Shown here: one piece after another, positions 29,688 through 46,098 of the stretch
Numbering within the stretch: position 1 is the stretch's first letter
Layout: the number at the start of each line of letters is the position of its first letter
From: Planctomycetota bacterium
GTDB lineage: Bacteria; Planctomycetota; Planctomycetia; JALXBF01
NCBI GenBank assembly: GCA_026991575.1
Contig: JALXBF010000014.1
Location: 11,467 to 75,466, forward strand
Direction: 5' to 3'
DNA length: 64,000 nucleotides
The notes under the pieces: generated by a model
What the model was told of the DNA's origin: nothing
What the model saw: the letters and a program-made list of their open reading frames with translations, nothing else
The model's database searches: none
Translations under genes and position numbers: made by a program

Positions 29688-30944
29688 ATGAACCAGACGA
29701 TCGAGCTCCCGTGGGGCAAATGGACTCACGAAAGCTCCCTGAAGCTGGCGGTGCCGGTCGACTGGCACGTTGAGCTCATCGACCCGGACAGCTCGCCGGC
29801 CGGTCCGTGCATCGAGCGCGCGCTGGCCGAACCAGTCGGCTCACCACCGCTGCGCGAGCTTGCGCGCGGAGCGGAGCGCGTCTGTGTGGTCGTCGAAGAT
29901 CCGGCTCGACCGACCCGCCTCGGGCCGATCCTTACTGCCGTGATGCACGAACTGTCCCGGGCAGGAGTGCCCACCGGCTCTGTGACCGTGCTCGTTGCCA
30001 CAGGTGCACATCGATGGGAAACCGACCGGATCATCTTCGAGAAACTTGGGCTGCCGGCCAACCGAACCAACAGCCCCGCGGTTGTCATCCATTCCCCGCA
30101 GGACTGCGAAAACACCGATATCGTTCTGGACAAGACCGCCGTCCGTCTGAACGGCCACTTTCTCCACGCCGACCTGCGCATCCTGATCGGATCGGTGATC
30201 CCCCATCCGTTTGCCGCCTACAGCGGCGGAGCCAAGATCGTGCTGCCCGGCATCGCAGACCTGGACAGCACTACCCACATCCACAAGATGGCGCAGCTGG
30301 GCGTCGGAATCACCAGCGACCCGGACACGAATCGGTTCCGCGGCAAGATCGAGGCAGCTGTGCTACGGCTCGGCGGTCTTTTCTGCATCTGCTGCGTGCC
30401 AACGATGTCGGGAGAAGTAGTTGGCTGCTGGGCCGGCGACCTGGTTGCTGCTCATCGTGCCGCGGTGGCCGTTGCAGCGCGCCGTTCCATGAGGCCGTTG
30501 GCGGAACCGGCCGATGTGCTGATCTTGAACGCGTATCCGAAGGATGTGGATCTGGTGCAGAGTCGCGCCGCGCTGGCTTGTCTGCCGAGAGCGGTCCACT
30601 CCGTGATCCGGCCAGACGGGATCGTTGTGCTCGTGACGGCTGCACCGTTCCAGGCACGCGGCCATGAGCTGTTCTCGCCCGGTGGTCGCCTGCACGGTGA
30701 GCCGCGGCTGGAGCAGAGACTCGCCGGCCACGAGCTCTGGTTGCTCACGCCGGCAGCTGAGGAAGAAGTGCGTGCCGTCTTCGGGCCGGGCTGTCGGGTG
30801 TTCAAAACTCCAGGGTCGCTCATCGAAGGGCTAGCCGGCCGGCTGCGGAATCGTGCACGGGTTGCGGTCCTGCGCTCCGCCCCTCTGCTCCGCCTTACCA
30901 GCCAACGTGCAGCAGCGACAGGGAACGAGCGTCGAGCCGGGTAA
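29688..30944 (+). CDS. LarA-like (lactate racemase N-terminal domain, DUF2088) family protein
   Basis: 418 aa. N-terminal domain pattern (VVVEDPARPT..LVATGAHR) and overall length match the LarA/DUF2088 family. The specific substrate is unknown. Confidence 0.45.
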   Translation: MNQTIELPWGKWTHESSLKLAVPVDWHVELIDPDSSPAGPCIERALAEPVGSPPLRELARGAERVCVVVEDPARPTRLGPILTAVMHELSRAGVPTGSVTVLVATGAHRWETDRIIFEKLGLPANRTNSPAVVIHSPQDCENTDIVLDKTAVRLNGHFLHADLRILIGSVIPHPFAAYSGGAKIVLPGIADLDSTTHIHKMAQLGVGITSDPDTNRFRGKIEAAVLRLGGLFCICCVPTMSGEVVGCWAGDLVAAHRAAVAVAARRSMRPLAEPADVLILNAYPKDVDLVQSRAALACLPRAVHSVIRPDGIVVLVTAAPFQARGHELFSPGGRLHGEPRLEQRLAGHELWLLTPAAEEEVRAVFGPGCRVFKTPGSLIEGLAGRLRNRARVAVLRSAPLLRLTSQRAAATGNERRAG

Positions 30945-31863
30945 GGCCGGCATCGAGCGCCGCTTCGATCGCCTGTTCGAACTCCTTGCGTGTGATCGTC
31001 CGATTCAGCAGCTCGTAGCGGGGTGCGCGGCCTTCTGGCCGGTACTGGGCCATGATGTTGACGTAGGTGTTCGGCGAGATCTCCTCTGCCAGGAATTTCA
31101 TGATCTCGCGCGTGCCGGCCAGGTTGTTGGGCATGACCAGGTGGCGGACCAGCAGACCACGGCGCGCGATGCCATCCGGGCCGATCTGCAGATCCCCCAC
31201 CTGCCGGTGCATCTCCTTGATGGCACGTCGTGCCACTTCCGGATAGTCGGCCGCTTTCACGGCCCACTTGGCCACGTCGGGATCCCAGAACTTGAAATCC
31301 GGCATGTAGATGTCGACGACGCCGTCCATCAGCCGCAAGCTTTCCAGACAGTCGTAGGCGCTGGTGTTGTACACGATCGGGAGCTGCAGACCACGTTGTA
31401 CGGCGTAGTACACGCCTTCCAGCACCTGGGGCACGACGTGTTCCGGGGTGACGAAGTTGATGTTGTGGCAGCCGCGGTCTTGCAGCTCCAGCATCATGTC
31501 CGCCAGTCGATCTGGTGGCGTTTCCCGCCCGATGCCTTCCCAACTTATGTCGAAGTTCTGGCAGAAGACGCAGCGCAGGTTGCACCAGGAGAAAAAGATC
31601 GTGCCGGATCCATTCCAGCCGCGCAGGCAATCTTCCTCGCCGAAGTGCGGGAAGTAGCTGGCCACGCGTGCGTACCGCCCAGTGCGGCACACGGCCCGTC
31701 GGATGTCGTTGTGCAGTCGATCCGCGTGGCAGTTGCGCGGGCAGCAGGTGCAATCCTCCAGTCGCGCGACCGCCACCGCGACGCGCCGCTGCAGCTCACC
31801 GCTGCGATACAGCTCCAGGTAGGCCGGATACGTGCCGGGCTGCTTGCGCCGGGGTTCGCTCAT
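30895..31863 (-). CDS. radical SAM protein, PflX-like (COG1313, pyruvate-formate-lyase-activase homolog)
   Basis: CNLRCVFCQN CX3CX2C cluster motif plus the family-typical HNINFVTPEH and Cys-rich N-terminus (CTCCPRNCHADR). Confidence 0.7.
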   Translation of the reverse strand: MSEPRRKQPGTYPAYLELYRSGELQRRVAVAVARLEDCTCCPRNCHADRLHNDIRRAVCRTGRYARVASYFPHFGEEDCLRGWNGSGTIFFSWCNLRCVFCQNFDISWEGIGRETPPDRLADMMLELQDRGCHNINFVTPEHVVPQVLEGVYYAVQRGLQLPIVYNTSAYDCLESLRLMDGVVDIYMPDFKFWDPDVAKWAVKAADYPEVARRAIKEMHRQVGDLQIGPDGIARRGLLVRHLVMPNNLAGTREIMKFLAEEISPNTYVNIMAQYRPEGRAPRYELLNRTITRKEFEQAIEAALDAGLTRLDARSLSLLHVGW

Positions 31864-31889: not shown

Positions 31890-33161
31890 TCAGAACCGGG
31901 CCAATGCCGCGTGAAATACGCCGTGAGCATAGCGGTCCGGCCGAAGTGGCGAGAGGTCCAGTTCCGGAACCCCCCGCACAATCCACTCGGCCAACAGCAT
32001 TCCAGTCGCCGGCCCCTGGGTAAGCCCCAGCATGCCATGGCCGGCAGCAATCCAGAGGTTCTCTACCCATGGCACCGGCCCCACATACGGCAGGCCATCG
32101 GCGCTCATCGGTCGCATGTGGCACCAGACGTCGACCACTTCTGTACCGCTCAGGTCGAACGCGCGGCCCGCCGCCTGCTCGATCAACGCCACGCGACGCG
32201 TGTCGATTTTGCGGTTGAACCCGCTGAATTCCATCGTGCCCGCAAACCGACAACGTGTGCCCAGCGGTGTGACGAAGACCCGGTCCTTGACCAGCACGAC
32301 CGGTCGGTCGGGCAACCCGGGCGCCTCGCGGTAATCGACATGGTAGCCCTTGCCGGGCAAGATCGGGAGATCCAGGCCCACCGGCTGTACCAACTCCGGC
32401 GTCCATGCTCCGGTGGCCAACACGTAGTGGTCCGCCTGGAAGTCGCCCTGATCGGTCACCACCGCGCGCACCCGCTCGTGTGCCACCTCCACATGCCGGA
32501 CCGGCGTGCCGGTGCGGATGGTCACTCCCTGTTGTTCGGCGAGCTCTGCGACCGCCTGCACGAAGGCTGCCGGGTCGCAGTAGCCCGAGTCCGGGTAGTA
32601 GACCGCACCGCAGGCCGGCACCTGCAACTGAGGTAGCCACCGGCGCAGGGCTGAGCCGTCAAGCGTCTCGTAGCGAAAGCCGTAGCGGCTCAGAATCATC
32701 GCCTCATGCTTGGCTCCCGCCAGCGTTTCCTCATCGACGCAAACCTCCAGCCGGCCGTCAACCCGGAAGCCGAAGTCCTTCTGCCGCGCCAGCTCGTGGA
32801 ACAGTCGAAAGCTCAACCGTCCCAGCCGGCACAGTACCCCGGTCGCCTGTGCCATGTGTCGATGGGTGCAGGCGCGGGAAAACTGCATGAACCAGCTCAT
32901 GTGCTCGGCCAAGAACGACGGCTTGATGTACAGCGGGCTGTCGGGACGAAGCAGCCAGCGGAGGTTGCGCCACATGGTGCCCGGCTGGGGCAGCGGCAAA
33001 TGACCTGGCGTGATCTGGCCCGCATTGCCCTGAGAACAGCCCGCGCCGATTTCGCCTTGCTCCAGCAGCGTCACTTCGGCCCCCTCGCGGGCCAGGTAGT
33101 ACGCCGCGCTCACACCGATAGCGCCGCCGCCGATAACGATTACTCGTGGCTCTCGTGCCAT
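31890..33161 (-). CDS. FAD-dependent oxidoreductase (D-amino-acid dehydrogenase/DAO-like)
   Basis: GxGxxG FAD fold (VIVIGGGAIGVSAAYYLA..G..V.LLE) and the DadA-like C-terminal region. Confidence 0.75.
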   Translation of the reverse strand: MAREPRVIVIGGGAIGVSAAYYLAREGAEVTLLEQGEIGAGCSQGNAGQITPGHLPLPQPGTMWRNLRWLLRPDSPLYIKPSFLAEHMSWFMQFSRACTHRHMAQATGVLCRLGRLSFRLFHELARQKDFGFRVDGRLEVCVDEETLAGAKHEAMILSRYGFRYETLDGSALRRWLPQLQVPACGAVYYPDSGYCDPAAFVQAVAELAEQQGVTIRTGTPVRHVEVAHERVRAVVTDQGDFQADHYVLATGAWTPELVQPVGLDLPILPGKGYHVDYREAPGLPDRPVVLVKDRVFVTPLGTRCRFAGTMEFSGFNRKIDTRRVALIEQAAGRAFDLSGTEVVDVWCHMRPMSADGLPYVGPVPWVENLWIAAGHGMLGLTQGPATGMLLAEWIVRGVPELDLSPLRPDRYAHGVFHAALARF

Positions 33162-33230
33162 TCAACCGACGCTCCGCTAAGGACAGCGTTCCGAGGCCGA
33201 CTCCGATGTAATTGTTCGGCACCGGGCGAG

Positions 33231-33857
33231 TCACAGTCCTTCGGGCGTCGGCTGACTGGGCGGCGGCACGTTTGGATCACCCTGGCGGCGGCGCTGCTCG
33301 TAACGCGGATCCTCCAGGCCGTAAGCCGACGCCACCCGGTTGAAGAACGCAAACAACGCCGTGACGTAGACAGCCTCCGCGATCTGTTCGTCGCTCCAGC
33401 CCGTATCGCGCAGCCCGGCAATGTCGTCTTGGGAAATGTCCCCTGGCCGTAGCGTCAGTTTTCGGACAAAGCTCATCAGCGCCGCCTCCGGACCCGCCGC
33501 GGCCTGGTCCGCACGGCCCTCCCGGCATGCTGCCACCTCCGCCGCATCGGCTCCCTGCAACTGCAGGAAGTACGCGTGGGCACCGGTTCAGTACTCGCAG
33601 CGATTCAACGCGGAAACATACGTGGCAATCGCCTCCTTGAGCCGCCGCGACAGATGGCCGTCCTGGAAATGGACCGGATAGGTAAGCGCGATCATGTGGC
33701 GTAGAAGCTCAGGCCGCATGCTCAACGCCTTCAGAATCTCAGGCATGCGCTCCCGGCCGGGATTGGCCCGCTTCCACGCGGCATAGATCTCCGCCACCTC
33801 GCCGTCAGCCTCGTCATCATCAACCCACTTGATCCACGGCATCGGCTCGCTCTCCAT
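33231..33857 (-). CDS. AhpD-like / peroxidase-related enzyme (carboxymuconolactone decarboxylase family), putative selenoprotein with an in-frame TGA (Sec) at 33588..33590
   Basis: Two adjacent same-frame ORFs (33588..33857 and 33231..33560) are separated only by a TGA. Read through, the motif is NRCEY-U-TGAH = CxxUxxxH, replacing the second Cys of the family's CxxCxxxH. Both halves match the family: N-terminal WIKWV..EA.GE..EIY, C-terminal ISQDDIAGLRDTGWSDEQIAEAV..ALFAFFNRVA. Confidence 0.6.
33551..33572 (-). promoter_or_regulatory. candidate SECIS-like stem-loop 19-36 nt downstream of the in-frame UGA
   Basis: The mRNA 5'-ACUUCCUGC-AGUU-GCAGGGAG-3' can form an ~8-bp stem (one G.U pair) with an AGUU apical loop, at the position where bacterial SECIS elements sit. 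Confidence 0.3.
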
Positions 33858-33957
33858 TCACGCTGTCGACACCGCCGCAACAACAGCCCTCAAGGACCGT
33901 CCGGTTCGTTGCCGGTCGGTCTGCGGCAACCGCTGCCGAAAACTATACTTGGGTGCC

Positions 33958-34995
33958 ATGACCAAGAGGATATACGAAATCGAACACCGGGAATGCTCGG
34001 CAGACCTGCTGCCGGAGCTGCGCGACGTCTACGCCCGGGCACGGCAGGTGACGCTTCCGATCGAACGATTTCGGTGGTTCTACCTGGAGAACCCGTCGGG
34101 CCGAGCCCATCTTCTGCTGGCACGCGATCGGTCGGGCCAACCGGTGGGTATGTCGGTCGCTATTCCCCACCGTTGTCAAAAGAACGGCCGATACACGATG
34201 GCGTGGAACACGGTCGATTTCTGCGTTGTGCCCGAGCACCGGACGCTGGGCCTGGCCGTCCAGCTGCGCCGCGCGGTGCTTGAAGCGGCAGCCGAACGAG
34301 CCGTCGAGGTGGTGTTCTCCCACCCCGCCCCGGAAACCCTGCCCGTCCACCAGCGCTCGGGCATGACCTGCACCGTGGCCAATCGCCGCTTCGTGCTGCC
34401 GGTGAGCATCCGCGCGCTGGCCGAAGCTCGCTACAACAGCAGCTCACCAGCACGAATCGTCGCTGCTGCCGTCGGCGCGCTGGCCGACGGCTTCGCGCGC
34501 GGCCCCGGCATTGGCCGCGCGCGAGCCCGTCGGGTCGGTTGGTCAGAAGCTGCCGCACTGCTGAGCCGGCTGCCGCGGCCCTACCGCCAACGAGCGCTGA
34601 GCTTCGTCGTCGACCGCGACTTTCTGATCTGGCGCTTCGCGCGCTGTCCGCGGTATGAGTGCCAAGCCTATGCGTGCTGGCTGGATGACCAGCCGCTGGC
34701 TGTAGCAGTCGTCGGCCTCCTGCAACAGACCGCCTGGCTTAAGCTGCTGGAGCCGATGAACGCACCGTGCCTGGCCATCCGCGCCCTGACGGCAACCATG
34801 GTGCAAAGTCTGCGTCGTCACGGCATCAGGACGATCTCTGCAGTCCTGCCCGCCGGGCACGCGTTGGAAGCGGTGCTGACACGCAGCGGCTTCTGGCCAC
34901 AGTCGGATCCATCGCTGACGCTGTGGCACAGCCCCGCAAACAGCCAGGGGTCTCCAGCCACCTGGAACCGCCTGGTCTGCGACCGCGATCTGTGA
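33958..34995 (+). CDS. GNAT-family N-acetyltransferase (FemAB/BioF2-like architecture)
   Basis: ATG at 33958. Acetyltransferase core pattern (FCVVPEHRTLGLAVQLRRAVLEAAAERAVEVVFSHP). It is divergent from the AhpD-like gene. Confidence 0.5.
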   Translation: MTKRIYEIEHRECSADLLPELRDVYARARQVTLPIERFRWFYLENPSGRAHLLLARDRSGQPVGMSVAIPHRCQKNGRYTMAWNTVDFCVVPEHRTLGLAVQLRRAVLEAAAERAVEVVFSHPAPETLPVHQRSGMTCTVANRRFVLPVSIRALAEARYNSSSPARIVAAAVGALADGFARGPGIGRARARRVGWSEAAALLSRLPRPYRQRALSFVVDRDFLIWRFARCPRYECQAYACWLDDQPLAVAVVGLLQQTAWLKLLEPMNAPCLAIRALTATMVQSLRRHGIRTISAVLPAGHALEAVLTRSGFWPQSDPSLTLWHSPANSQGSPATWNRLVCDRDL

Positions 34996-35120
34996 GCAGT
35001 CCTCTGGCTAGCTGCCGAGCCAGTCCATCTGATCGGCTCCTGGCCCCCCGGCCGGGCTTCGTACGTGCACCAGGGGGGGCCGGAGCCGAACGGGCACGGC
35101 GGCCACTCCCCGATTGCCTT

Positions 35121-35468
35121 CTACGGAATCAGGCAGCCACCGTAGACGCCAAAGCCGATGCCGCCATACGGAGGCAGCACGTAGCGCGGTGGATAGCCAT
35201 AGTAGCCATAGGCCCGATAGCGGTAGCGGTAGTAGTAGAACCGCCCGTAGGGGTAGTGGGGCAGATGGTGCCCGTGGTGGAAGTAATCGTGATGGTGGTG
35301 ATGCCGATAGTGGTGATGCCCGTGGTGACCGTGCCCGATACCCAGGCCAAAGCCGGGCGTTCCGATGAACAACCGGAAGTCATCCGCCCTGGCTTCCGAC
35401 GCGCTTGCCCCAAAGACGAGCGGAACGACCAGCGCGGCGACAGAACCGTAGATGATTCGCCTCAACAT
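35121..35468 (-). CDS. secreted His/Tyr/Gly-rich small protein
   Basis: 115 aa. Signal peptide, then GHGHHGHHHYRHHHHHDYFHHGHH and YYYRYRYRAYGYYGY tracts. Strong GGAGGT Shine-Dalgarno upstream of the ATG. Confidence 0.5.
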   Translation of the reverse strand: MLRRIIYGSVAALVVPLVFGASASEARADDFRLFIGTPGFGLGIGHGHHGHHHYRHHHHHDYFHHGHHLPHYPYGRFYYYRYRYRAYGYYGYPPRYVLPPYGGIGFGVYGGCLIP

Positions 35469-35632
35469 GGCTCTACCTCCACCCTATGAAACACCTGCCG
35501 CTCACATTGCACTCGCGTCATCTACCGTCTTGCGGCCATCCTGGCCGTGCCGCCCATCCTGGTGCCCAGCTCACCTGCCCTACGTGCCCTGGTGCCCTCC
35601 GGCCCGAGAGCCGACGCGGCGCCGCGTGCCGT

Positions 35633-36037
35633 CTAGTGTCCCCAGTAGCCCCAGACCGAGAAGCCGACACCGTGGTGGCCGTAACGGTGATGCGGGACGA
35701 CGAACCCGTGGTGTGGGCTACGATGAAGCCGGTGATGGTAACGGGGCACGTGGAAAATTCGCCTGCCGTGGTGCCCTAGCTCATGCTGACCGTGATGGCC
35801 GAGGCGATACGCGCCGCCCGGGTACAACGGCTGTCGGTGCCAGCCCCTGCCGTGGCGCCACCAAGAATGCCCACCATGGACGGCGCCATGATGCGCGCGG
35901 ATACGGTGGCCCCAGTAGATCGGGCCGAATTCGTCACCACGGGCCGTGGCGGCTGAGCCGCCGGCGGTGAGCCCCCCCAAGGTGGCCGCCGAAGCCAGAA
36001 CGACCGCCAGCTTGCGTCTGAGCCACTGGACTCGCAT
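35633..36037 (-). CDS. secreted His/Gly/Trp-rich small protein (compositionally related to the neighbour)
   Basis: ATG at 36037 (MRVQWLRRKLAVVLASAATLGG = signal peptide), followed by HHG/HGG/HR-rich repeats. Confidence 0.5.
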   Translation of the reverse strand: MRVQWLRRKLAVVLASAATLGGLTAGGSAATARGDEFGPIYWGHRIRAHHGAVHGGHSWWRHGRGWHRQPLYPGGAYRLGHHGQHELGHHGRRIFHVPRYHHRLHRSPHHGFVVPHHRYGHHGVGFSVWGYWGH

Positions 36038-36419
36038 GGTCAGCCTCCCCGCGCAGTCGCGCGTGCGGATTCGCCACACCGGGCGGTGGTTCCCAGCGAC
36101 CACCGGGTTTCCCGGACGCTTGCCCCCAACGTGGGTGCGAACTGCGTTCCAGACGGTCTCTGGCGCAGCAGGGCGCGCCGTTACCTACTATGCAGAAAGG
36201 CGTTAGAAACAACCGACCGTCGCACGACGGGCCGCTACCGCGTTGTCATCGTTGCACCATGCGCAGTCAAATCGACACCCAATCGGCGCTGCGGATCGCA
36301 AGCTGAACGACTGCTACCGGATCGCCGAGCCACTACGGGCCCATGATCGGCAATGGGCGACGTGCCGACCGAATTGCAAGAGCTGCCATGGGATCCGGCG
36401 ACAACGCCTGGCACACGGG

Positions 36420-37844
36420 CTACCAGTACGTCTCGAGCAGAATCTCCATGGTCAGCGTCTGGGCCACGCTCAGCCAGACCATCGTGCGCCAGAGGTACTG
36501 GGAGTGTTCGCCTGGCAGACGTGCCAGCAGCTCCGCCACGCAGGCGACGACCGGGACGAGCAGGAACAGCCAGATGCGTTCAACCTCCAGCGTGTAGACT
36601 GGCGCCGCGGCCGCGATCAGGATCGTCCCCGCGGTTGCCAACCACAGAGGCCGTTGGTGGCCGGTGCGCTCGGCCAGTCCCCACAGCCAGCAACCGGCAA
36701 CGGCCAGGCCGCAGCCGATGGCAAAGGCCGAGAGGTTGCCGAGCGCGAGTCCTGCCCACCGTAGCGGCTCGTCGTGAGCCGTGCCCGCCATGATGCGATG
36801 GTGCGCGGAGAGGCAGGCCAGGAACGTGTCCACCGGTCGATAGCCGACGGTCGCCAGCAGCATCGTGGGGGTGAGGAATGCGACGGCGAAGCTCAGTAGC
36901 AGCCTGACGGCAGGCCAATCGAACCGTTTCCGCTCCAGCAGCACGTAGAGTGCGAACCAGAGCCCGACCCAAACAGCACTGTAGGTCATCAGCAGTCCCA
37001 GCCCGGCGCTGAAGCCGGCGGCCGCTGCAGCACGGGCGCCTTGCGATCGGCAAAGAATCGCCGGCGCGAATGCTCCGCCCAGGAAAACAGCGAAGACGCC
37101 ATCCATGGAGGTCGCGCTGAAGAGCACGGCGGATGGCAACACGGTGAACAGCACGGCGGCTAGCCGCGCGGTCAGCTCCTGGCCGCAAGCTGCGGCGCGC
37201 GCTGCCGCGTAGGCAAGCGGAGCGGTGCCGGCGGCGACGGCCACCGTGAACCACGCCAGCCGTTCGGGCCCGCCGCCAGTTAGCCGAGCCACGGCCCAGA
37301 GCAGCAGCACCGCGACGGGCGGATGGTTCTGAGCGTGCATGGGCAACGTGTGGGCGATCTCGGGAAAGCGGGCAACGAACCGGACGGGATCGCCGACCAA
37401 GGGCACGGCTCCGGCGTATTCGAGATCCAAGCGGGTGTACGGAGCCGCCACCCGCTCGGGCCCGCCGTCGAGGATCGCAACGGTGGCGGCCGTCATCAGC
37501 GAGCAGCCGTACAGAGCGGGCACGAAACGTCTGACGGGCCATCGGCTCAAGAAACCGCTTCGGCGAAGCAGGACTGCGTACAGAGCAAGCCATGCAAGCG
37601 GTACGAAGAGCCAGCCTTTCAGGTGGGGCCGGACATAAGCATACAGCGGCGCGACGGTCTCGCTGACAGCGCCGAACTTGAGCCCTGCGTGGGCGATAGC
37701 GTAGCGCAAGGCCGCGTGGCAGAGGCCGACGACCACGATGACGGCTGTCGTGTACGCGAGCCAGCGGCGCAGCGGTAACGGCCTGGCGCGCGAGGCTGGT
37801 GTGTTCTGGGCTGAGAGGATGTCCTGATGCAGAGCGACGTCCAT
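36420..37844 (-). CDS. hypothetical polytopic integral membrane protein (at least 10 TM helices)
   Basis: Long hydrophobic protein. ATG at 37844 (MDVALHQD); an alternative earlier start lies at 37928. No catalytic motif recognised. Confidence 0.5.
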   Translation of the reverse strand: MDVALHQDILSAQNTPASRARPLPLRRWLAYTTAVIVVVGLCHAALRYAIAHAGLKFGAVSETVAPLYAYVRPHLKGWLFVPLAWLALYAVLLRRSGFLSRWPVRRFVPALYGCSLMTAATVAILDGGPERVAAPYTRLDLEYAGAVPLVGDPVRFVARFPEIAHTLPMHAQNHPPVAVLLLWAVARLTGGGPERLAWFTVAVAAGTAPLAYAAARAAACGQELTARLAAVLFTVLPSAVLFSATSMDGVFAVFLGGAFAPAILCRSQGARAAAAAGFSAGLGLLMTYSAVWVGLWFALYVLLERKRFDWPAVRLLLSFAVAFLTPTMLLATVGYRPVDTFLACLSAHHRIMAGTAHDEPLRWAGLALGNLSAFAIGCGLAVAGCWLWGLAERTGHQRPLWLATAGTILIAAAAPVYTLEVERIWLFLLVPVVACVAELLARLPGEHSQYLWRTMVWLSVAQTLTMEILLETYW

Positions 37845-38235
37845 GTCCGAAGCCTCCGAGGGCGACGCCCCCAGTATCGCGACCAGCCCACCCGGCAACA
37901 ACCGCAATCGGCCCTCGCCTCCTTGCAAACCCAGTCCTGCTCGCTGCTGCCCCGAGTCACGCCGCCGCTTCCCGCCGTGCCGGTCATCCAGGAGATCCGT
38001 TGCCCGGATCGTCTCGATTGCGGGAGACTCGCTACCGCCGATCGTCCCTGATCAGGCGAATCGGCCGACCAGGACGATCGGGCGCACGAGCGTGCGGGGG
38101 GGTATGGCCGATCCTGGAGGCCAGGGGGGCACGGCAACGGAGCGGTCTTCTGCCCGCTTGCGGCACCATGCCATGGCCCCGGGCGAGCGAGGCGTGCGTG
38201 CCAGGGTAGACCGACCAACCGGTCATCGCCGTCCT

Positions 38236-38859
38236 CTACGGTAGCTCCAGTGCCTGGCACAACGACAGCGGGCGGAAGTTGAACAGGTTCAGTGCCGCGA
38301 CATCCCCGTAGAGCTGCACCACCGTCAGGGATCCTGTGCTGACGACCAGTTTCCAGTAGTTTCTCGGGTTCAGGTCCAACAAGCGGCACAGGATGATCTG
38401 AATTGGGGTCTGATGGGTCACAAGCAGGATCTTGTCGCCGTCGAACGAGTGCACGGCGTCCAGCACCCGATCGATTCGATCGGCCAACTGCAACAGTGTT
38501 TCGCCGCCAGGGGGCGCGTGCTCGAACGGGTTGCGCATCCACAGCGACCAGTTGGCCCGGTCGGCGGTGCGCACCTCGGCCAACGTGCGCCCCTCCCACT
38601 GCCCGAAGTGCAACTCGCGCAGCTCCGGCAGCGTCTGCACCTCGGCGCCGGGTACCAGCAGGCGAGCGGTCTCACGCGCCCGGGACAGATCGCTGGCAAC
38701 GACCGCATCGAAGCTCTGTCGTTCCAGCCATCTGGCCAGTTCCTCGGCCTCCTGCTTGCCTGCCTGGCTCAAGCCGATGTCCGTTTGTCCCTGAATGCGC
38801 CCGTCTTCGTTCCATGTTGTCTGGCCATGCCGCACCAGATAGAGTGTTCGTGGCATCAA
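38236..38859 (-). CDS. histidine phosphatase (phosphoglycerate-mutase-like) family protein
   Basis: N-terminal LVRHGQTTWN (RHG motif). Later conserved ELHFGQWEG and the C-terminal His region. Confidence 0.8.
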   Translation of the reverse strand: MMPRTLYLVRHGQTTWNEDGRIQGQTDIGLSQAGKQEAEELARWLERQSFDAVVASDLSRARETARLLVPGAEVQTLPELRELHFGQWEGRTLAEVRTADRANWSLWMRNPFEHAPPGGETLLQLADRIDRVLDAVHSFDGDKILLVTHQTPIQIILCRLLDLNPRNYWKLVVSTGSLTVVQLYGDVAALNLFNFRPLSLCQALELP

Positions 38860-38877
38860 CTCCTGGCCGTCCCTTTC

Positions 38878-41871
38878 TCACTTGCAACTCACCCAGATCG
38901 GGCTGGACCAGGCCAGCGCCCGGTTCGCCTGCTGGATGCGTACATAGTACATGTAATGCCTGCCCGCTTTGGCGTCCGTGTCGCGCCAGCGCAGATCGAC
39001 CGTAGGCTGATCGGGTTCGAAGCTGTACGCGTAGTGCGGCTGGCCGTCGTCGACCCGCCGGACGATATCGATCCGCACGATCGGACAGGTGCCGTGAGCA
39101 ATGATCCGCAGCTCCGGTTTACCTCGCACCTGCGTGACGTCACCCATGATCGCATTGCCGCAGCGGACGTCGAGCACGATGTTGTCTTGTGCTGCGTAGC
39201 AGTGGCGGCGTCGGAAGGCGTCGAGCACACCCTGGCGGCTCCGCTCCTCAGCCAGCACCACCGCATAGCTGATGTGCGTGCTCACGTGGTCACTGGAAGA
39301 CTGGAACCCGAGCCGGTAGCCTTTGGCGAGCGCGTTCCAGACGAAACCGTCCGGATGATACCCCTGGATCGCATCGTCCGGTCCTCGTGGTGCCATCGGT
39401 GCGTTGGGCTCCTCGTAGTTCTGGCGGTGCCCTTGGAAGATCTCCACGACCGGCTCGACCTCCGGGTCGTTATCGCGCCAGTCGGTGCCCATGTTGGTCG
39501 CACTGGTGTGCACGGCACAGATGCCGCCGAAGTGTTTCAGATAGCGGTATAGGTTCTGGACGTCCGGTGAGCCGGTTTCGGGTGTGCCGAACAGGTTGGC
39601 ACGCCCCAGCAGCCGCGGCAGGGTACGGATACCACGTTCGGCAAACATCACGTTGCGATGGCCGCTGGGGTAGACCACGCTCCGCTCGTACGTGAACATT
39701 GGCACAAAGCTCGGCGGGTTGTGGTACATGTCAATCTGTTTCTGGGTAAACCACCAGTTGTATTCCCGCTGCATCGCGTACGGGTAGTCATGGTCGCCGG
39801 GTCCAATCCAGTCCATGGCAGCCGCATCGTAGGCGTACCGCCACAGCTCCTCGAAGGGACCATCCCAGTCGCGGTGCGCGGACAGCTCTGTGTGGCGGTG
39901 AAACTCGCCCCGAAGCAACCGGTACTCCTTGCCCCCCACGCGCACCCGGTACTGGCGCATCCGCGCAACGTCGGCGGCTTCGTTCGGATGCACCGGTTCC
40001 ACTGCCGGGCCAGCGTGCGGGTCCACCGCGCGGAGCCCACCGGCAGCAGGAAGTTCCGGGACGTCGAGGAAACTGATGGCAAGATCGTTGTCCGCTGTTC
40101 CCGGTGCCGGACCACGATGATCGCTGGCGTAGACCAGCAGCATGCGATCGGCCACCGGCGCGACCGCTGGCCGGCGATCCAGCGTGTTGGCGCTGGCCGG
40201 CACGGTTCGCTCCTCAGACCAACGATCCCCGCCGTAGATCGACACGTAGCTGAACCATACCTCGCGTGACCCGCTGCGCAGCGGGTGCCGGCGGTAAAAA
40301 AGCCAAAGGCGGCCACCCGCATCCACGTGAAGCTCCGGGATGCTGATGCGGTGATCCAGTCGGGGTTTGATGCGGGGATCGTCAAAGAACGTAAACACCG
40401 GCTCGGAGCGGACGTCTTCGGCCGTTTGGTAGACCTTGCCGTCCACCACGCAGCGTACCAGGATGTTCCGCGTCCAGTAGAAAGGAACGCCCTTCGTGCC
40501 AGGCCATCGATCGCCGTAGTCCTTGGCCCAGTTCGGATCGCTGTCTTCAAACGCCACCCAGACGCGGCCCTGACGATCGACGGCTACGGAGGGCCGAGCT
40601 TCGTAACGGGCCGAAGCAGCAACCGGGACGATCTCCCCTAGCTTGCTGCCTGCCAGCGCACGGACGAACACGTCATAGTTGCCCGCGGCGTAGCTGTCCC
40701 ACGCAATCCAGAGCTTGCCGTCCGGCGCGGCGGCCAGGTCGGGGTACCAGTCGTTGGCAGGGGAGTCCGAGACGACGTACACGTTGCCCCCCTTGGGATC
40801 CGACACCGATGCCAGGAAAACGTCGAACTGCCCGTTGACGAAGCCCTGCCAGGCAGCCCACACGGAACCGTCCGTGCCACGGGTCGCAACCGCGACGTTA
40901 ATGTCCGAGCCGGGGTTGCTTGAGATCCGTTTCCGCGCACCCCAACGGCCTGTGCTCGGGTCGTAGGCTCGTGCGTAGATGTCCCAGTTGCCGTCGACGT
41001 TCTCGGACCAGACAACCCACACGCGGCCTTGGCCATCGACGGCCACCTGTGGCTTCCAGACATCCAGTCCGCCCTTCGTCACAGGCGGTACCTCACGCCA
41101 GAGGTCGTCGCGATAGAAGGCCAGCCGGATCTGATCGCCGTTGCCGCGGGTCACGAGCGATTCGAACTGGCCGCGCCGCACAGCGTCAAAATCGATCGGA
41201 TTACCGTGTTGGTACGCTACGTAGCAGACCCAGACGGTCCCGTCCTGGCCGACGGCGGCCGATGGGTAGTCCTCTTCGTCGCTTTGGTCGGCCACCCAGG
41301 CGTACAGGGGCAGGCGTCGTACGAGGGCGCTTCCGGCCAGGAACTGTCGTTCGGCTCCGACGCGCCCCACATCGCTCGGAGCAAACTCAAAGTCGCCCTG
41401 GGCCGTGCGGACGCGGACGCGAGCTGCTGCGGGGCGGTCGATGAGCAGCTCAAGCACGACGGGACGCGTCTGGCGCCGCCCCTTTTTCTTCCGCACCGTG
41501 GCCCGTCCAGTCCAGGCGTTTCCGTCCAGCTTGACGTTCGCCGACACGGGACGGATGCGCACGAGCTCACCGCTGGAGACCGTCACCGAGCCGGACCAAT
41601 CCTGAGCGGCATCCGGCACACGGCGGCCAAGGACCAGCCGCAGGCGAGCCATCTCGGGGTGGATCCTGAGCTCCCCGCCGGGCGGCTCACTCTGGTAAAG
41701 AGCATCAGCGGCTCGCTCGCTCCAGCGTGCCGCCAGGGTCACGACCAACAGTATGCCGACCGAGCCAACCACCAAACCAAGGTAGCGTTTCACGTTTTCC
41801 ACTCCGACAGCTCTCGCGGAGGTGCACACAAAGCCAGGGGAAAGAAAGAACGCCCCCCGGGCCAGTCGCAC
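38878..41871 (-). CDS. large membrane-anchored protein: N-terminal BNR/beta-propeller-like repeats plus a C-terminal PHP/DUF3604-like metal-dependent hydrolase-like region
   Basis: 997 aa. N-terminal TM anchor. Repeated W..W/DG blades (VWVVWSENVDGNWDIYARAY, WIAWDSYAAGNYDVFVRAL). C-terminal His-rich motifs (GEFHRHTELSAHRD, ICAVHTS, SSSDHVSTH) reminiscent of PHP-type metallohydrolases. Confidence 0.4.
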   Translation of the reverse strand: MRLARGAFFLSPGFVCTSARAVGVENVKRYLGLVVGSVGILLVVTLAARWSERAADALYQSEPPGGELRIHPEMARLRLVLGRRVPDAAQDWSGSVTVSSGELVRIRPVSANVKLDGNAWTGRATVRKKKGRRQTRPVVLELLIDRPAAARVRVRTAQGDFEFAPSDVGRVGAERQFLAGSALVRRLPLYAWVADQSDEEDYPSAAVGQDGTVWVCYVAYQHGNPIDFDAVRRGQFESLVTRGNGDQIRLAFYRDDLWREVPPVTKGGLDVWKPQVAVDGQGRVWVVWSENVDGNWDIYARAYDPSTGRWGARKRISSNPGSDINVAVATRGTDGSVWAAWQGFVNGQFDVFLASVSDPKGGNVYVVSDSPANDWYPDLAAAPDGKLWIAWDSYAAGNYDVFVRALAGSKLGEIVPVAASARYEARPSVAVDRQGRVWVAFEDSDPNWAKDYGDRWPGTKGVPFYWTRNILVRCVVDGKVYQTAEDVRSEPVFTFFDDPRIKPRLDHRISIPELHVDAGGRLWLFYRRHPLRSGSREVWFSYVSIYGGDRWSEERTVPASANTLDRRPAVAPVADRMLLVYASDHRGPAPGTADNDLAISFLDVPELPAAGGLRAVDPHAGPAVEPVHPNEAADVARMRQYRVRVGGKEYRLLRGEFHRHTELSAHRDWDGPFEELWRYAYDAAAMDWIGPGDHDYPYAMQREYNWWFTQKQIDMYHNPPSFVPMFTYERSVVYPSGHRNVMFAERGIRTLPRLLGRANLFGTPETGSPDVQNLYRYLKHFGGICAVHTSATNMGTDWRDNDPEVEPVVEIFQGHRQNYEEPNAPMAPRGPDDAIQGYHPDGFVWNALAKGYRLGFQSSSDHVSTHISYAVVLAEERSRQGVLDAFRRRHCYAAQDNIVLDVRCGNAIMGDVTQVRGKPELRIIAHGTCPIVRIDIVRRVDDGQPHYAYSFEPDQPTVDLRWRDTDAKAGRHYMYYVRIQQANRALAWSSPIWVSCK

Positions 41872-41900
41872 GCAGGACAGCCGCGTGGGGGGAACCGTAG

Positions 41901-42953
41901 CTACACGTCGAAGCCGTGCTGGCGTCGGTGGTAGGGGCCGTCGAACGCCTTGGTGGACTTAAACAGCTCGTGGCGGCCGTCGGTTGCCTCGTTGCGAACG
42001 CGGGCACGGAGAGCCTGCTTCTCGTCGAGGCTCATCGGCTTGAAGTTGCGGGCGATCTTGATGTCCTGCTCCAGGTCACGCATCGAGACGATGCCACAGA
42101 CGAGCGAGGAGATTGGCAAGCTCAGGGCGTAGCGGATGCATTCCTCGGCCGTTGCCACACCCCGCTCCACAAGACGGCCTTTCGGGTAGCCGCCTCCGAG
42201 CGACTTCATGCCGATGACACCAATGCCGCGCTGCAGGCAAATGGGCACGATCTCGTTCTGGAAACTGCGGTAATGGTAGTCCATGATGTTGATCGGCATC
42301 TGAGAGGTGTGCCAGTCGAAGTCCTTGGCCTGTTTGACGAGCTCCAGCATGCGGAGGTGGATACGGGGGTCCTTGTGGCCGGTGAATCCCACGTAGCGGA
42401 CCTTGCCCTCCTTGAGCGCCTCCATCGCAGCCCGGAAGCCACCTTTCTCAAAAATCCAATCCGGGTCGTTGTCGTAAACCAGCTCGTGGAACTGCCAGAG
42501 GTCAATGTAGTCGGTGCGGAAACGTCGCAGGCTATCTTCCAGACACTTCTTGGACCCGCGGTAGTCGCGGTTGCAATTCTTGGTCATGAGGAAAACTTTG
42601 TCGCGCCGTCCCTGAAGCGCCTTGCCCATCACCTCCTCGGAATAGCCCATCTGGTAATCCCAGCAGTTATCCCAGAAGGTGATACCCTCGTCCAGGGCGC
42701 GGTGCATGATCCGGATCGCCTCACGCTCCCCATGCACCTGGGCGCAGCGTCCGATGTGCCAGCCGCCCAGGCAAATGATGGAGACGCGCTCGCCCGTGCG
42801 GCCAAGCGGCCGGGTGGGGATGCCCGTTGCGGCACCGTCGTCCTGAGCCAGCAGGATGGCATCGGCAGCGGAAAGGGACGCCGCGGCCGCAGCCGCAGCC
42901 GTTCCGGTGGCCAGTCGCAAGAAGTCTCGCCGGTTGGCTTTTTGCCTGAGCAT
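41901..42953 (-). CDS. aldo/keto reductase with a Tat signal
   Basis: ATG at 42953 followed by NRRDFLRLATGTAAAAAA (twin-arginine). AKR core (GTWHIG..., ITFWDNC, KVRYVGFTGHKDP). Confidence 0.8.
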   Translation of the reverse strand: MLRQKANRRDFLRLATGTAAAAAAASLSAADAILLAQDDGAATGIPTRPLGRTGERVSIICLGGWHIGRCAQVHGEREAIRIMHRALDEGITFWDNCWDYQMGYSEEVMGKALQGRRDKVFLMTKNCNRDYRGSKKCLEDSLRRFRTDYIDLWQFHELVYDNDPDWIFEKGGFRAAMEALKEGKVRYVGFTGHKDPRIHLRMLELVKQAKDFDWHTSQMPINIMDYHYRSFQNEIVPICLQRGIGVIGMKSLGGGYPKGRLVERGVATAEECIRYALSLPISSLVCGIVSMRDLEQDIKIARNFKPMSLDEKQALRARVRNEATDGRHELFKSTKAFDGPYHRRQHGFDV

Positions 42954-43273
42954 GGTTGTGTGCCTCCGCAGGGCGTACTCCAGGCTCCGGTTGTCGATTC
43001 TCGCGCCTGCTACCGGCCATGTCAAGTACGTGCCGCACGCCGCGTCGGGGGCAGCCGTTGCGTCGGGCGCGTGGGACCAGTTCGCAAGCGGCGACGATAA
43101 CCCCTCGCTTGCAGGCGACCGGGGTCAAAGCCCACCCGCGCGATCCGGATGCTCACCCGCAGCCCCGACCGTACGGCAAAACACAGTACTCGCGGTCGTC
43201 CGCGATCACGCGGCTCGGCCGAGGGAGACAATCCGGCGTGCAACGTAGCGGGACGAGCGGGAGCAGCAGCATG

Positions 43274-43306
43274 CAACACGGCCGATCGGGACGATCGGCC
43301 GTGTTG
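43274..43306. terminator. perfect 14-bp inverted repeat with a 5-nt loop (caacacggccgatc-gggac-gatcggccgtgttg)
   Basis: Seen directly in the sequence. It sits ~75 nt downstream of the korB stop (minus strand) and ~320 nt upstream of the AKR gene start. No U-tract follows. Confidence 0.3.
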
Positions 43307-43378
43307 AGTGGCGGCAAGGGCTGTGTACGGGCCCAGGTGCCCGCGGCCAGTCTCGGATTGGGGGGGACACGTGACGGC

Positions 43379-44269
43379 TTACAGGAACGAGTCGATCAGA
43401 CGCTGTAGACGCTCGTTGTCATCCAGCCCATCGGCCCGCATCTTGTCGATCCGCTCCTGAAGCAGTTCCTCATACGTGGGCCGCTCGTTACGGTAGAAGA
43501 CGCCGAGCCAGATGGTGGACGTGTCCAGCGCGCGGGCAAAGGCGGCCTGACGATCGGTCGGGTCGTGGTCATCGGGTAGCTGGCGCACTTGCTTCGACCA
43601 GATCTTGTACGTGTTGTAGAACGTCGTGCACGGCGACATGGCCTGGACGACGGCAAAGCCGGGATGACTGAGGGCCTGCTTGATGATCTGAGTGGTCGTC
43701 TTGGGACTGCCGGCGTAGACGCGGGCGATGAAGCTGACGTTGTAGGCGACGAGCATGGCGATCGGATTGAGCGGTTCTTCGACGGCCGGCCACTGAGGCG
43801 TACTCTTGCCGGCGAGCCCCTGGGGCGAGGTCGGCGAGACCTGGCCCTTGGTCAGGCCGTAGATCTCGTTGTCGAAGATGATGTAGGTCATGTTCGGGTT
43901 GCGGCGAGCAGCGTGTGGGATGTGGCCGCCGCCGATGCTGAAGCCGTCACCGTCACCCCCCATCACGATGACGTTCAGCTCGGGGTTTGCCTCCTTGACG
44001 CCCAGGGCCGTTGGCAGCGCACGGCCGTGCACGCCATGAAAGCCGTACACTCCCAGGTAGGCTGCCACGCGCCCCGAGCAGCCGATGCCCGAGACGATCA
44101 CGGTGTTGTGCCGCTGGATATGGGGAGATTCTTTCAGGGCGATGCGGATTGCGTTCAGCAACGCATAGTCGCCACAACCCGGGCACCATACTGGTTCGAT
44201 CGCGCCACGAAAATCGAACCGCTCTTCGGGCTGCTCGAGTTTTTCGGGCCGAGTCACCGTCGCGGCCAT
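43379..44269 (-). CDS. korB: 2-oxoacid:ferredoxin oxidoreductase, beta (TPP-binding) subunit
   Basis: CPGCGD Cys motif, TPP-binding GDG region (MGGDGDGFSIGGGH) and the family-typical C-terminus. Confidence 0.85.
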   Translation of the reverse strand: MAATVTRPEKLEQPEERFDFRGAIEPVWCPGCGDYALLNAIRIALKESPHIQRHNTVIVSGIGCSGRVAAYLGVYGFHGVHGRALPTALGVKEANPELNVIVMGGDGDGFSIGGGHIPHAARRNPNMTYIIFDNEIYGLTKGQVSPTSPQGLAGKSTPQWPAVEEPLNPIAMLVAYNVSFIARVYAGSPKTTTQIIKQALSHPGFAVVQAMSPCTTFYNTYKIWSKQVRQLPDDHDPTDRQAAFARALDTSTIWLGVFYRNERPTYEELLQERIDKMRADGLDDNERLQRLIDSFL

Positions 44270-44322
44270 TGCTGATCACCTCACCATTGGTTGCCATCGA
44301 TTGCCGCTGTGGACCTACTAGG

Positions 44323-46098
44323 TTATCGCACCGCGTCCTTGATACCGTCGAGGATTTCTTGCGGTGTGAACGGCGTACCGCTCACTTTGGTCAGTCGCAC
44401 CGGCTCAACGCCTAGCCGTGCCTGCAGCAACTGGGCAAACTGGCCCGTGAAGTTGATCTCCGGCACGAGCACCCGCCTGACGCCGCTGATGAACTGGGCG
44501 AGCTCCTTTTCGGGCAGTGGGCTGAGCACGCGGGTGTGCGCGAAGGCGACCTTCAGTCCGGCAGCCTGAGCCTGGGCGACCGCTTCACGGATCACCCCCT
44601 CGGTCGACCCCCAGCTGATGACGCCCACGTCTGCGCCGTCCGGGTCGCCGTAGATCGACACCCAGTCGTCGCCCTTGAACTTGGCGTAGGCGCTCTCCAG
44701 CTTTCGGAACCGCTTGTGAGACATCGCCGTGTGCACTTCGGGCGTGTAGTTCGGGGCACCGTATTCGTCGTGCTCCAGGCCGGTGGCCACAAAGTAGGTG
44801 CCCTTCATGCCAGGAATGGCCGTCGGAGAGATCCCGCTCATGGTGATCTGGTAACGGGGGAAGAGCTTGCGGCCGTTGCCGTTCTCGGGTGCTTCCTCAG
44901 CGACTAAGCGGTTCACAACCGGCAGTGCTGTAGGATCCGGTCGCGCCACGGTTGCCTTGCGGTTCGAAAGGTTCGCGTCACTGAGGATGATGCATGGCCC
45001 CTGCGTATATTCGGCCAGGTTGAAGGCACGGATGGTGGTGTAGAACGCATCACGCACGCTGGACGGTGCGACCACAACCCGCGGCGCATCACCGTGACCA
45101 CCGTAGAGCGCCAGATTCAGATCGCTCTGTTCGGTCTTTGTCGGCATGCCGGTCGAGGGGCCGGCCCGCTGGATGTCCGCAATGACCACGGGCACTTCGG
45201 TCATGACCGCCAGTCCGATCAGCTCGATCATCAGCGACAGGCCAGGCCCGCTGCTGGCAGTCATCGCCTTGACACCGGCCACCGAGGCTCCGATGCAGGA
45301 AGCCAGCGCAGCAATCTCATCTTCCATCTGCAGGACGCGGCCACCGAACTTCGGTAGCTCACGCATCATGAACTCCAGAATCGTCGACGCCGGCGTGATC
45401 GGGTAGCCAGCGAAGAAGCGGCAGCCGGCGGCGATCGCGCCCAGACTGATCGCTTCGTTGCCGTTGAGCACCATGCGTTCCGGCTTGCCGATGGTCTTCA
45501 GCCGGGCGACGGGCTGCATCTTCAGCTCATCGAGCACGTACTGGGCCCCAAACTGAACGCAGGCGAAGTTCTTCTGGACGATCTCCTCGCTCTTGGCCGC
45601 GTACTTTTGCTGGATCATGGCCCGGATAACGTCCAGGTCCATCTCCAGCAGGGCGGCCACGGCCCCAAGCCCGACCATGTTCTTGGCCAGCGGGAAGCGG
45701 ACCCGTTCGCGTGCGATGCTGGTCATGGGCACGGGCACCAGCGTCAGCTGGCGAGACGGCTGGGGTTCGTAGCTGTCTGCGTCAAAGACGACGACGCCGT
45801 GATCAACCAGCAGCTTCTCGTTCTTGTCGAAGCCTTCCGCGTCGAACGCCAGCAGGATGCTGACGTTGTTGCCCTGGCTGAGCAGTTCGCCGTCGGCGAC
45901 GCGGAGCTGATACCAGGCCTGGCCCCCCTTGATCTCGGCCGGGTTGGTCTGGAACGTGTAGATGTCGTAGCCGATGCGTGAGGCGGCCAGCGTGAGCATT
46001 TCGCCCGTGGTCATGATGCCGGGCGTGGTGCCCGTGTCGCCTGCCACGCCCACAACGACATCCACCGTGTAGCTGAGTACTTCGGTTGCGACGGCCAT
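44323..46098 (-). CDS. korA: 2-oxoacid:ferredoxin oxidoreductase, alpha subunit
   Basis: 591 aa with the KorA/PorA-like pattern (GYPITPAS, MEDEIAALA..IGAS.AG..AMTASSGPG). It is immediately upstream of korB on the same strand. Confidence 0.85.
   Translation of the reverse strand: MAVATEVLSYTVDVVVGVAGDTGTTPGIMTTGEMLTLAASRIGYDIYTFQTNPAEIKGGQAWYQLRVADGELLSQGNNVSILLAFDAEGFDKNEKLLVDHGVVVFDADSYEPQPSRQLTLVPVPMTSIARERVRFPLAKNMVGLGAVAALLEMDLDVIRAMIQQKYAAKSEEIVQKNFACVQFGAQYVLDELKMQPVARLKTIGKPERMVLNGNEAISLGAIAAGCRFFAGYPITPASTILEFMMRELPKFGGRVLQMEDEIAALASCIGASVAGVKAMTASSGPGLSLMIELIGLAVMTEVPVVIADIQRAGPSTGMPTKTEQSDLNLALYGGHGDAPRVVVAPSSVRDAFYTTIRAFNLAEYTQGPCIILSDANLSNRKATVARPDPTALPVVNRLVAEEAPENGNGRKLFPRYQITMSGISPTAIPGMKGTYFVATGLEHDEYGAPNYTPEVHTAMSHKRFRKLESAYAKFKGDDWVSIYGDPDGADVGVISWGSTEGVIREAVAQAQAAGLKVAFAHTRVLSPLPEKELAQFISGVRRVLVPEINFTGQFAQLLQARLGVEPVRLTKVSGTPFTPQEILDGIKDAVR

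Follow-up and report, generated by a model that had tools for sequence, protein, structure and literature searches.

Two adjacent genes for His-rich proteins with predicted export signals in a Planctomycetota genome: candidate metal- and pH-responsive envelope proteins without detected relatives

We looked at a stretch of 64,000 nucleotides from a Planctomycetota bacterium (GenBank assembly GCA_026991575.1, contig JALXBF010000014.1, positions 11,467 to 75,466 of the forward strand), hereafter the window, to describe two adjacent minus-strand open reading frames (ORFs) that encode small His-rich proteins, ORF A (35121-35468) and ORF B (35633-36037). A and B are very probably real genes, and by every sequence-based test of membership, all of which failed, they are orphans that belong to no described family; they are classed here as His-rich low-complexity proteins. 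Their products are proposed to be exported, disordered, cationic proteins that would behave as metal- and pH-responsive "sponges" of the cell envelope, a function that we infer from composition alone and to which we give a probability of somewhat under 40%.

ORF A starts with an ATG and encodes a predicted exported protein of 115 residues, rich in His, Tyr and Gly. Its ideal Shine-Dalgarno site, GGAGGT (35475-35480), had been pointed out in a first-pass annotation of the same DNA and was found 6 nt from the ATG. Residues 1-28 (MLRRIIYGSVAALVVPLVFGASASEARA, 35385-35468) resemble a signal peptide as judged by hydropathy, AXA sites and the AlphaFold2 (AF2) model, in which residues 2-23 form a helix, and candidate cleavage sites are found after ASA23 or ARA28. 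Mature A would count ~87 residues (~10 kDa), with 19% Gly, 18% His, 18% Tyr, 9% Pro and 8% Arg, a single Cys, no Met, almost no acidic residues and an isoelectric point (pI) of 9.2. It carries a His tract (residues 45-71, GHGHHGHHHYRHHHHHDYFHHGHHLPH, 35256-35336) including a 15-nt micro-repeat in two copies, a Tyr/Arg/Gly tract (residues 72-96, YPYGRFYYYRYRYRAYGYYGYPPRY, 35181-35255) with micro-repeats of 6 and 9 nt, and a C-terminal Gly-aromatic motif, GGIGFGVYGG (35136-35165), whose counterpart in B is GVGFSVWG. The last four residues of A, C-L-I-P (residues 112-115, 35124-35135), hold its sole Cys and are formally CaaX-like, an ending for which we know of no meaning in an exported protein of a free-living bacterium.

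ORF B, of 134 residues from its ATG, is rich in His, Gly, Arg and Trp and is likewise predicted to be exported. It is preceded by the Shine-Dalgarno site GGGGAGG (36044-36050), again with a spacer of 6 nt. An alternative GTG start, 22 codons upstream (extension to 36103), is possible but unlikely because the signal sequence would be buried and no Shine-Dalgarno site accompanies it. The signal-peptide-like segment of B (residues 1-32, MRVQWLRRKLAVVLASAATLGGLTAGGSAATA, 35942-36037) was recognized from hydropathy, AXA sites and AF2, which models residues 2-24 as a helix with a predicted local distance difference test score (pLDDT) of 83-87. Mature B would have ~102 residues (~12 kDa), with 22.5% His, 20% Gly, 12.7% Arg and 6% Trp, five xHHGx motifs, no Cys, no Met, almost no acidic residues and a pI of 11.5. 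The first-pass annotation had described an adjacent minus-strand pair of this kind, with signal peptides and mature parts of about this size, and the His, Tyr and Gly/Trp strings that it quoted are all present in A and B.

The gene calls of the contig at NCBI, at ENA and in Logan agree on these products of 115 and 134 residues, the ENA copy of the locus being JOHN19-1_SAMN10217877_METAG-scaffold_373; the source samples are SAMN10217877 and SRR14510437. Both N-termini contain a basic n-region with LRR, a hydrophobic core (KD9 hydropathy maxima of 2.9 in A and 2.5 in B) and several AXA-type sites, the signal peptides having been called heuristically from hydropathy and such sites. These signals are more likely of the Sec type than of the Tat type; LRRIIY and LRRKLA fit the Tat motif (S/T-R-R-x-F-L-K) only loosely, and the Tat-signal model of NCBIfam matched neither A nor B at E<=10. 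The GC contents of the three codon positions (GC1/GC2/GC3), 0.65/0.43/0.76 in A and 0.73/0.53/0.76 in B, resemble those of the Pfam-supported genes of the window (0.70/0.48/0.79 for the DAO gene). Codon usage was modelled on 22 long genes from the window; the model ranked the frame of A best of six, while the total score of the B frame was about equal to that of its in-phase antisense frame, a poor separation which is due to the very unusual amino-acid composition of B. The synonymous-codon component was +0.07 in A as well as in B, and the antisense ORFs scored below zero. An antisense-gene explanation was rejected, in line with the first-pass annotation, which had seen no plus-strand gene that would turn A and B into artefacts: the plus-strand ORFs at 34767-35489 and 35452-35970 have the lowest GC3, a non-coding GC pattern and negative synonymous-codon scores. 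An explanation by an RNA was also put aside, no Rfam match being found at E<=1 in 33000-39000. A scan for sigma-70 promoters, which is uninformative for this phylum, returned no sites.

His accounts for 18% of mature A and 22.5% of mature B versus 2.0% in the other genes of the window (9-11 times more), in which Tyr and Trp reach 2.8% and 2.1%. In random sequence of the same base composition, 16 and 13 His in 40 codons, as found in the pair, would have binomial probabilities of ~7e-15 and ~5e-11, respectively. The DNA repeats of A and B are limited to units of 6, 9 and 15 nt, each present twice, and His is encoded by a mixture of CAC and CAT. The composition bias is therefore kept at the protein level and is not a recent microsatellite expansion; a repeat-expansion artefact was discarded, only micro-repeats of 6-15 nt being present. 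Such a His density points to selection on composition. When six-frame ORFs were taken from 0.94 Mb of DNA (the window and 83 further loci, 79 of them from Planctomycetota/Poribacteria), A and B were the sole ones to join a signal-peptide-like start to at least 38% Gly, His, Tyr and Trp. That A stands next to B is not a coincidence.

The relationship of A to B was looked at by alignment and shuffling. BLASTP with composition correction gave nothing significant (E ~0.1). The two proteins nevertheless have colinear features in common, namely LRR in the n-region, A-R-[AG]-D-[DE]-F at the predicted cleavage site and G-[IV]-G-F-[GS]-V-[YW]-G near the C-terminus. The full-length local alignment had a z of 4.2, its score being reached by 1 of 2000 shuffles; for the mature parts, z was 2.2 and the score was reached by 50 of 2000. 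The observed score of AR[AG]D[DE]F was reached by 15 of 2000 shuffles and that of G[IV]GF[GS]V[YW]G by 29 of 2000. On these grounds, the pair may go back to a tandem duplication with later divergence.

Relatives were sought by sequence and by synteny. Queried by word index, 5.8 billion protein clusters gave neither A nor B any match but itself, and the profile of the A+B alignment, run exhaustively with HMMER over 1.84 billion representatives, found A and B only. No Pfam family was matched at E<=10, families of the ZraP/Spy/CpxP type, RcnB and CusF being covered; NCBIfam gave only a meaningless StpX match (E=6.1), and the only matches among PDB sequences were His-tags. No relatives of A or B were detected when translated scans were made of IMG/VR, of JGI metagenomes, of the species genomes of GTDB and, by tblastn, of the plasmids of PLSDB. 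Since low-complexity proteins can escape alignment methods, we also followed the gene upstream of B, which encodes a GT-C glycosyltransferase. Its best homolog, on a Logan contig (SRR7968108, hereafter L003), is only 49% identical; the gene has another place within this neighbourhood there, and no His-rich ORF lies near it. Nor did signal-peptide ORFs rich in His or in Gly, His, Tyr and Trp turn up on two more contigs or at 79 Planctomycetota/Poribacteria loci with homologs of this glycosyltransferase. The homolog check proposed in the first-pass annotation thus yielded only self-hits and no conserved synteny. An apparent poly-His match in one of these loci (L043, Candidatus Poribacteria OZ250160.1) was rejected as the wrong reading frame of an Asp/His-rich gene. 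The same locus holds, at 973-1512 on its minus strand, an ORF of 179 residues with a cytochrome-c-like CAYAGCH and a long acidic Asp/His tail (DDDDDHDHDDHDDHDD), which reads as a different kind of His-rich low-complexity protein. Nothing relevant was found in the literature on His-rich planctomycete proteins; ZepA (PMC10957091) was considered and is an unrelated, folded PEP-CTERM protein.

From the composition of the two proteins, the first-pass annotation had proposed periplasmic metal buffering as in Hpn, or a structural role in the envelope. Export signals and an extreme His content were found, but nothing beyond composition supports either proposal. Ni, Co, Zn and Cu are all bound by His6-like runs in general, and tracts such as HGHHGHHHYRHHHHHDYFHHGHH, together with the five xHHGx motifs, are chemically near certain to chelate these four metals and may do so in vivo. 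The mean pLDDT of the AF2 models was 49 for A and 51 for B, with no confident fold beyond the signal helix; the models were run on single sequences, as no alignment exists, so that this low confidence is weak evidence of disorder, and it fits a disordered sponge of the SilE type. The sole non-signal element modelled was a weak Trp-zipper-like beta-hairpin at residues 57-70 of B (pLDDT ~66; residues 57-69 are HSWWRHGRGWHRQ, 35831-35869). Between pH 7 and pH 5.5, the computed charge of mature A climbs from +5 to +16 and that of mature B from +12 to +27.

In the sponge reading, A and B would be lineage-restricted genes, each translated from its own Shine-Dalgarno site, and their products would cross the cytoplasmic membrane by means of a cleavable Sec-type signal peptide and remain without a stable fold once mature. 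In the periplasm or on the cell surface, the clustered imidazoles of the His runs and xHHGx motifs would chelate divalent Ni, Zn, Cu and Co, and the two proteins would act as a high-capacity, low-specificity metal buffer in the envelope, whose net charge, and hence metal loading, would switch sharply with pH. The envelope is proposed as the site because both proteins carry export signals. Hpn and Hpn-2 (PMC4671568) set a precedent, being two small His-rich paralogs that are confined to one lineage and handle metal.

Several points weigh against this sponge reading. The genetic context was scanned by comparing the 29 larger ORFs of the 64-kb window with Pfam and by looking at called genes up to 10 kb from A and B. 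No gene for a metal transporter, a metal sensor or regulator, NikR, urease or hydrogenase was found, nor was any gene for an RND protein, a P-type ATPase, a sensor kinase or a response regulator; the only Ni-related gene is that of a cytoplasmic LarA-like protein. The genes of PcoE, ZraP and RcnB, like that of SilE, stand beside efflux or sensor genes. Moreover, mature A and B are strongly cationic and Arg-rich, with few Asp or Glu and no Met, unlike the characterized bacterial metal sponges, and this cationic character disfavors the binding of cations electrostatically. The Tyr/Arg/Gly tract makes up half of A and is needless for a pure metal buffer. As no homologs were found, conservation gives no evidence of function, and the ENA and Logan contigs, two other assemblies with the locus, match the window with 100% identity and so leave no polymorphism from which selection (dN/dS) could be read.

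The missing metal-gene context, the cationic, Arg-rich character and the Tyr/Arg/Gly tract favor the main rival explanation, doubtful as it is, in which A and B would form a self-assembling envelope or adhesive material, that is, a coacervate, gel or coating on the cell surface, in a holdfast or in a matrix. Assembly would come from cation-pi contacts of Tyr or Trp with Arg and from His-Tyr contacts upon deprotonation of His, or from cross-links between His and metals. The composition of A, with its 19% Gly, 18% His, 18% Tyr and 8% Arg, agrees with this, as do YYYRYRYRAYGYYGY and two Gly-hydrophobic modules, GFGLGIGHG and GGIGFGVYGG; the pH-triggered phase separation of squid HBPs is brought about by modules of the types GHGxY and GAGFA (PMC6884462). 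Export signals on both proteins and the lack of a confident predicted fold also suit a material, as does a neighbouring GT-C gene of a type that builds envelope glycoconjugates. However, A and B have neither exact GHGxY repeats nor a long modular repeat array, they are short (87 and 102 residues), no bacterial precedent was found in the literature, and the link to the glycosyltransferase is not kept in relatives. This reading, too, is drawn from composition. Its more specific form, by analogy with animals, is unlikely: A and B would be the bacterial counterpart of the His/Tyr/Gly-rich load-bearing or adhesive proteins of animals, phase-separating or gelling on the surface or in a holdfast when the pH rises or Zn or Cu binds. 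A metal sponge and a self-assembling material are not mutually exclusive.

We consider it quite unlikely that A and B are non-functional, that is, chance or very young ORFs that arose by local repeat expansion in a GC-rich genome and are unexpressed or without a selected role. Such an origin would agree with the lack of any homolog even in the closest sampled relatives, where a neighbouring protein is 49% identical, with the small slippage-type micro-repeats of A and with a total codon score of B no better than that of its antisense in-phase frame. Against it, both ORFs combine a Shine-Dalgarno site at a 6-nt spacer, a canonical signal peptide, gene-like GC1/GC2/GC3 values and a positive synonymous-codon bias, and they share the colinear cleavage-site junction and the C-terminal motif. 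Their His density is beyond chance, the mixture of CAC and CAT argues against a recent pure repeat expansion, and the ORFs on the alternative strand look non-coding.

The least probable of the readings is that A and B are secreted cationic antimicrobial or competition peptides, binding the anionic envelopes of competitors and perhaps boosted by metal or low pH: they are small, signal-bearing and highly basic (pI 9.2 and 11.5; +16 and +27 at pH 5.5), rich in His, Arg, Trp or Tyr and Gly, and they are orphans with rapid divergence, as competition factors typically are, but no genes for bacteriocin export, processing or immunity were found near them, they have ordinary Sec-type signals and no double-glycine leader, ~100 residues is long for such peptides, and no amphipathic helix or confident structure was seen. 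ArnT-type modification of lipid A is a known defence against cationic peptides, and the upstream ArnT-like glycosyltransferase could in this way protect the producer by modifying its envelope, although here again the link is not kept in relatives.

The glycosyltransferase gene itself (36420-37907, minus strand) encodes 495 residues with 11 hydrophobic segments (~11 transmembrane segments). The first-pass annotation had placed a membrane protein of unknown function with 10 or more such segments immediately downstream; the gene lies instead upstream of B in the direction of transcription, on the same strand and after a gap of 382 bp, and its product can be assigned to PMT_2/ArnT-like GT-C glycosyltransferases by Pfam score and homologs. 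It scored 24.9 bits with PF13231, just below the cutoff of 26.1, and PF13231 also occurs in its homologs, some of which are named, for example, 4-amino-4-deoxy-L-arabinose transferase-like. The order on the minus strand is PFOR alpha, PFOR beta, an aldo-keto reductase, a protein of 971 residues, a histidine phosphatase (His_Phos_1), the GT-C glycosyltransferase, B and A. In L003, the GT-C gene is located between the PFOR-beta and aldo-keto reductase genes, whereas in the window (36420-46098) it follows the histidine phosphatase gene; by gene order, this is a local rearrangement beside the site of A and B. The 971-residue protein of the ENA and Logan calls, 997 residues in the window (38878-41871, minus strand), has faint Reg_prop/BNR-like propeller repeats and a DUF3604-like C-terminus, and its place beside the histidine phosphatase gene is kept in L003 (975 residues), the closest relative.

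Beyond A come a convergent gene for a GNAT acetyltransferase, then CMD, DAO, radical SAM and LarA-like genes and others. LarA-family proteins are enzymes with a nickel-pincer cofactor. The LarA-like gene (Lar_N, 29688-30944), ~4 kb from A, adjoins a radical SAM gene on the opposite strand (29688-31863 for the two), the listed ORFs overlapping by ~50 bp. A protein with DUF1559 and N-methyl domains (50819-52147) and the closest relatives of neighbouring genes, which are in Planctomycetota metagenome-assembled genomes, point to a Planctomycetota origin of the window, which takes up 64 kb of a contig of 85 kb. A strong, GC-rich hairpin (35033-35089) separates the stops of A and of the convergent GNAT gene; its arms of 17 nt are 88% complementary (-45.9 kcal/mol, z = -3.2; no U-tract), and it is likely the end of the transcription unit. 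In the spacer between B and A (35533-35627), a perfect 14-nt palindrome, ACGCGGC/GCCGCGT, comes right after the stop of B (35614-35627), and direct repeats, CGGCCATCCTGG and CGCCCATCCTGG, are found 18 nt apart and 65-130 nt upstream of the A start (two copies of GGGCACCAGG on the minus strand). Palindrome and repeats could be regulatory sites; no matching regulator is encoded nearby. Finally, B ends in WGYW (35636-35650), a WxxW motif, and its upstream gene is that of a GT-C glycosyltransferase. WxxW is the eukaryotic consensus for C-mannosylation, and the pairing, which is not conserved in relatives, is a curiosity only.

If expressed, A and B would be exported, cationic, aromatic-rich His proteins without relatives found in ~15 billion public protein sequences. 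They would then illustrate how one lineage of Planctomycetota, a phylum in which little is understood of the biology of envelope and holdfast, can invent low-complexity envelope proteins of its own. Should the material reading be true, they would represent an undescribed class of prokaryotic extracellular condensate-forming material, arisen de novo in one lineage. Proteins of this kind are out of reach for annotation by alignment, and composition-based surveys are therefore needed. A and B could also yield a simple metal- or pH-responsive polypeptide, as a biomaterial or a metal-capture module. The practical significance is modest for now, because the evidence comes from sequence, from a single uncultured genome and from an uninformative context.

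We compared A and B with known His-rich and cationic systems. Family, protein-cluster and profile searches detected no homology of A or B to Hpn, SilE/PcoE, ZraP, RcnB or any other family, and the likenesses below concern composition, export and evolutionary pattern. Histatins, shepherins and indolicidin-type peptides are eukaryotic, mostly shorter than 40 residues, secreted and cationic. A and B are similarly cationic and signal-bearing, rich in His, Gly, aromatic residues and Arg, with a charge that depends on pH and metal, but they are bacterial, ~90-100 residues long and without a bacteriocin-type leader, and immunity genes were not found nearby. On the side of materials, the His-rich proteins of mussels and worm jaws are analogues, as are the squid-beak proteins HBP-1/2. 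These undergo a pH-triggered coacervation in which His is deprotonated, hydrogen bonds join His to Tyr and Tyr residues cluster, and an HBP-like protein is defined by at least 2-4 GHGxY modules with GAGFA/GHGLH spacers (PMC6884462). A and B resemble them in being rich in Gly, His and Tyr with Gly-hydrophobic modules, signal-bearing and perhaps disordered, and a similar physical behaviour is plausible. They differ in that A has GFGLGIGHGHHGHHHY and GGIGFGVYGG but no GHGxY, B has no such module, and both are shorter and contain much Arg; HBPs being animal proteins, this is analogy and not homology.

Hpn and Hpn-2 are not known to have a signal peptide, consist of His to ~47%, have Cys pairs or Gln tracts and are linked to control by NikR, and Hpn is near neutral or acidic. 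These paralogs of gastric Helicobacter are cytoplasmic and serve the Ni supply of urease and hydrogenase (PMC4671568). Hpn, with which the first-pass annotation had compared A and B as a periplasmic protein, is thus a poor model for signal-bearing proteins of pI 9.2 and 11.5 that are rich in Tyr/Arg or Trp/Arg and have 18-22% His; no urease or hydrogenase gene was found near them in the window. As a small, His-rich, low-complexity pair of narrow lineage that evades ordinary homology searches, Hpn and Hpn-2 are the closest to A and B in evolutionary pattern. SilE is exported by a signal peptide, is disordered in its apo form and folds when metal binds, takes up several ions in the periplasm through His and Met motifs and is encoded within the sil efflux operon (PMC5008109). 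In contrast to SilE and PcoE, whose genes adjoin those of an efflux system and of its two-component regulator, mature A and B have no Met, are strongly basic and rich in Tyr, Trp and Arg, show no sequence similarity to them and have no efflux or sensor genes detected as neighbours. Yet they are, as SilE and PcoE, small, signal-peptide-bearing and equipped with multiple His, and perhaps disordered, and of the systems compared SilE is the closest to A and B in working principle.

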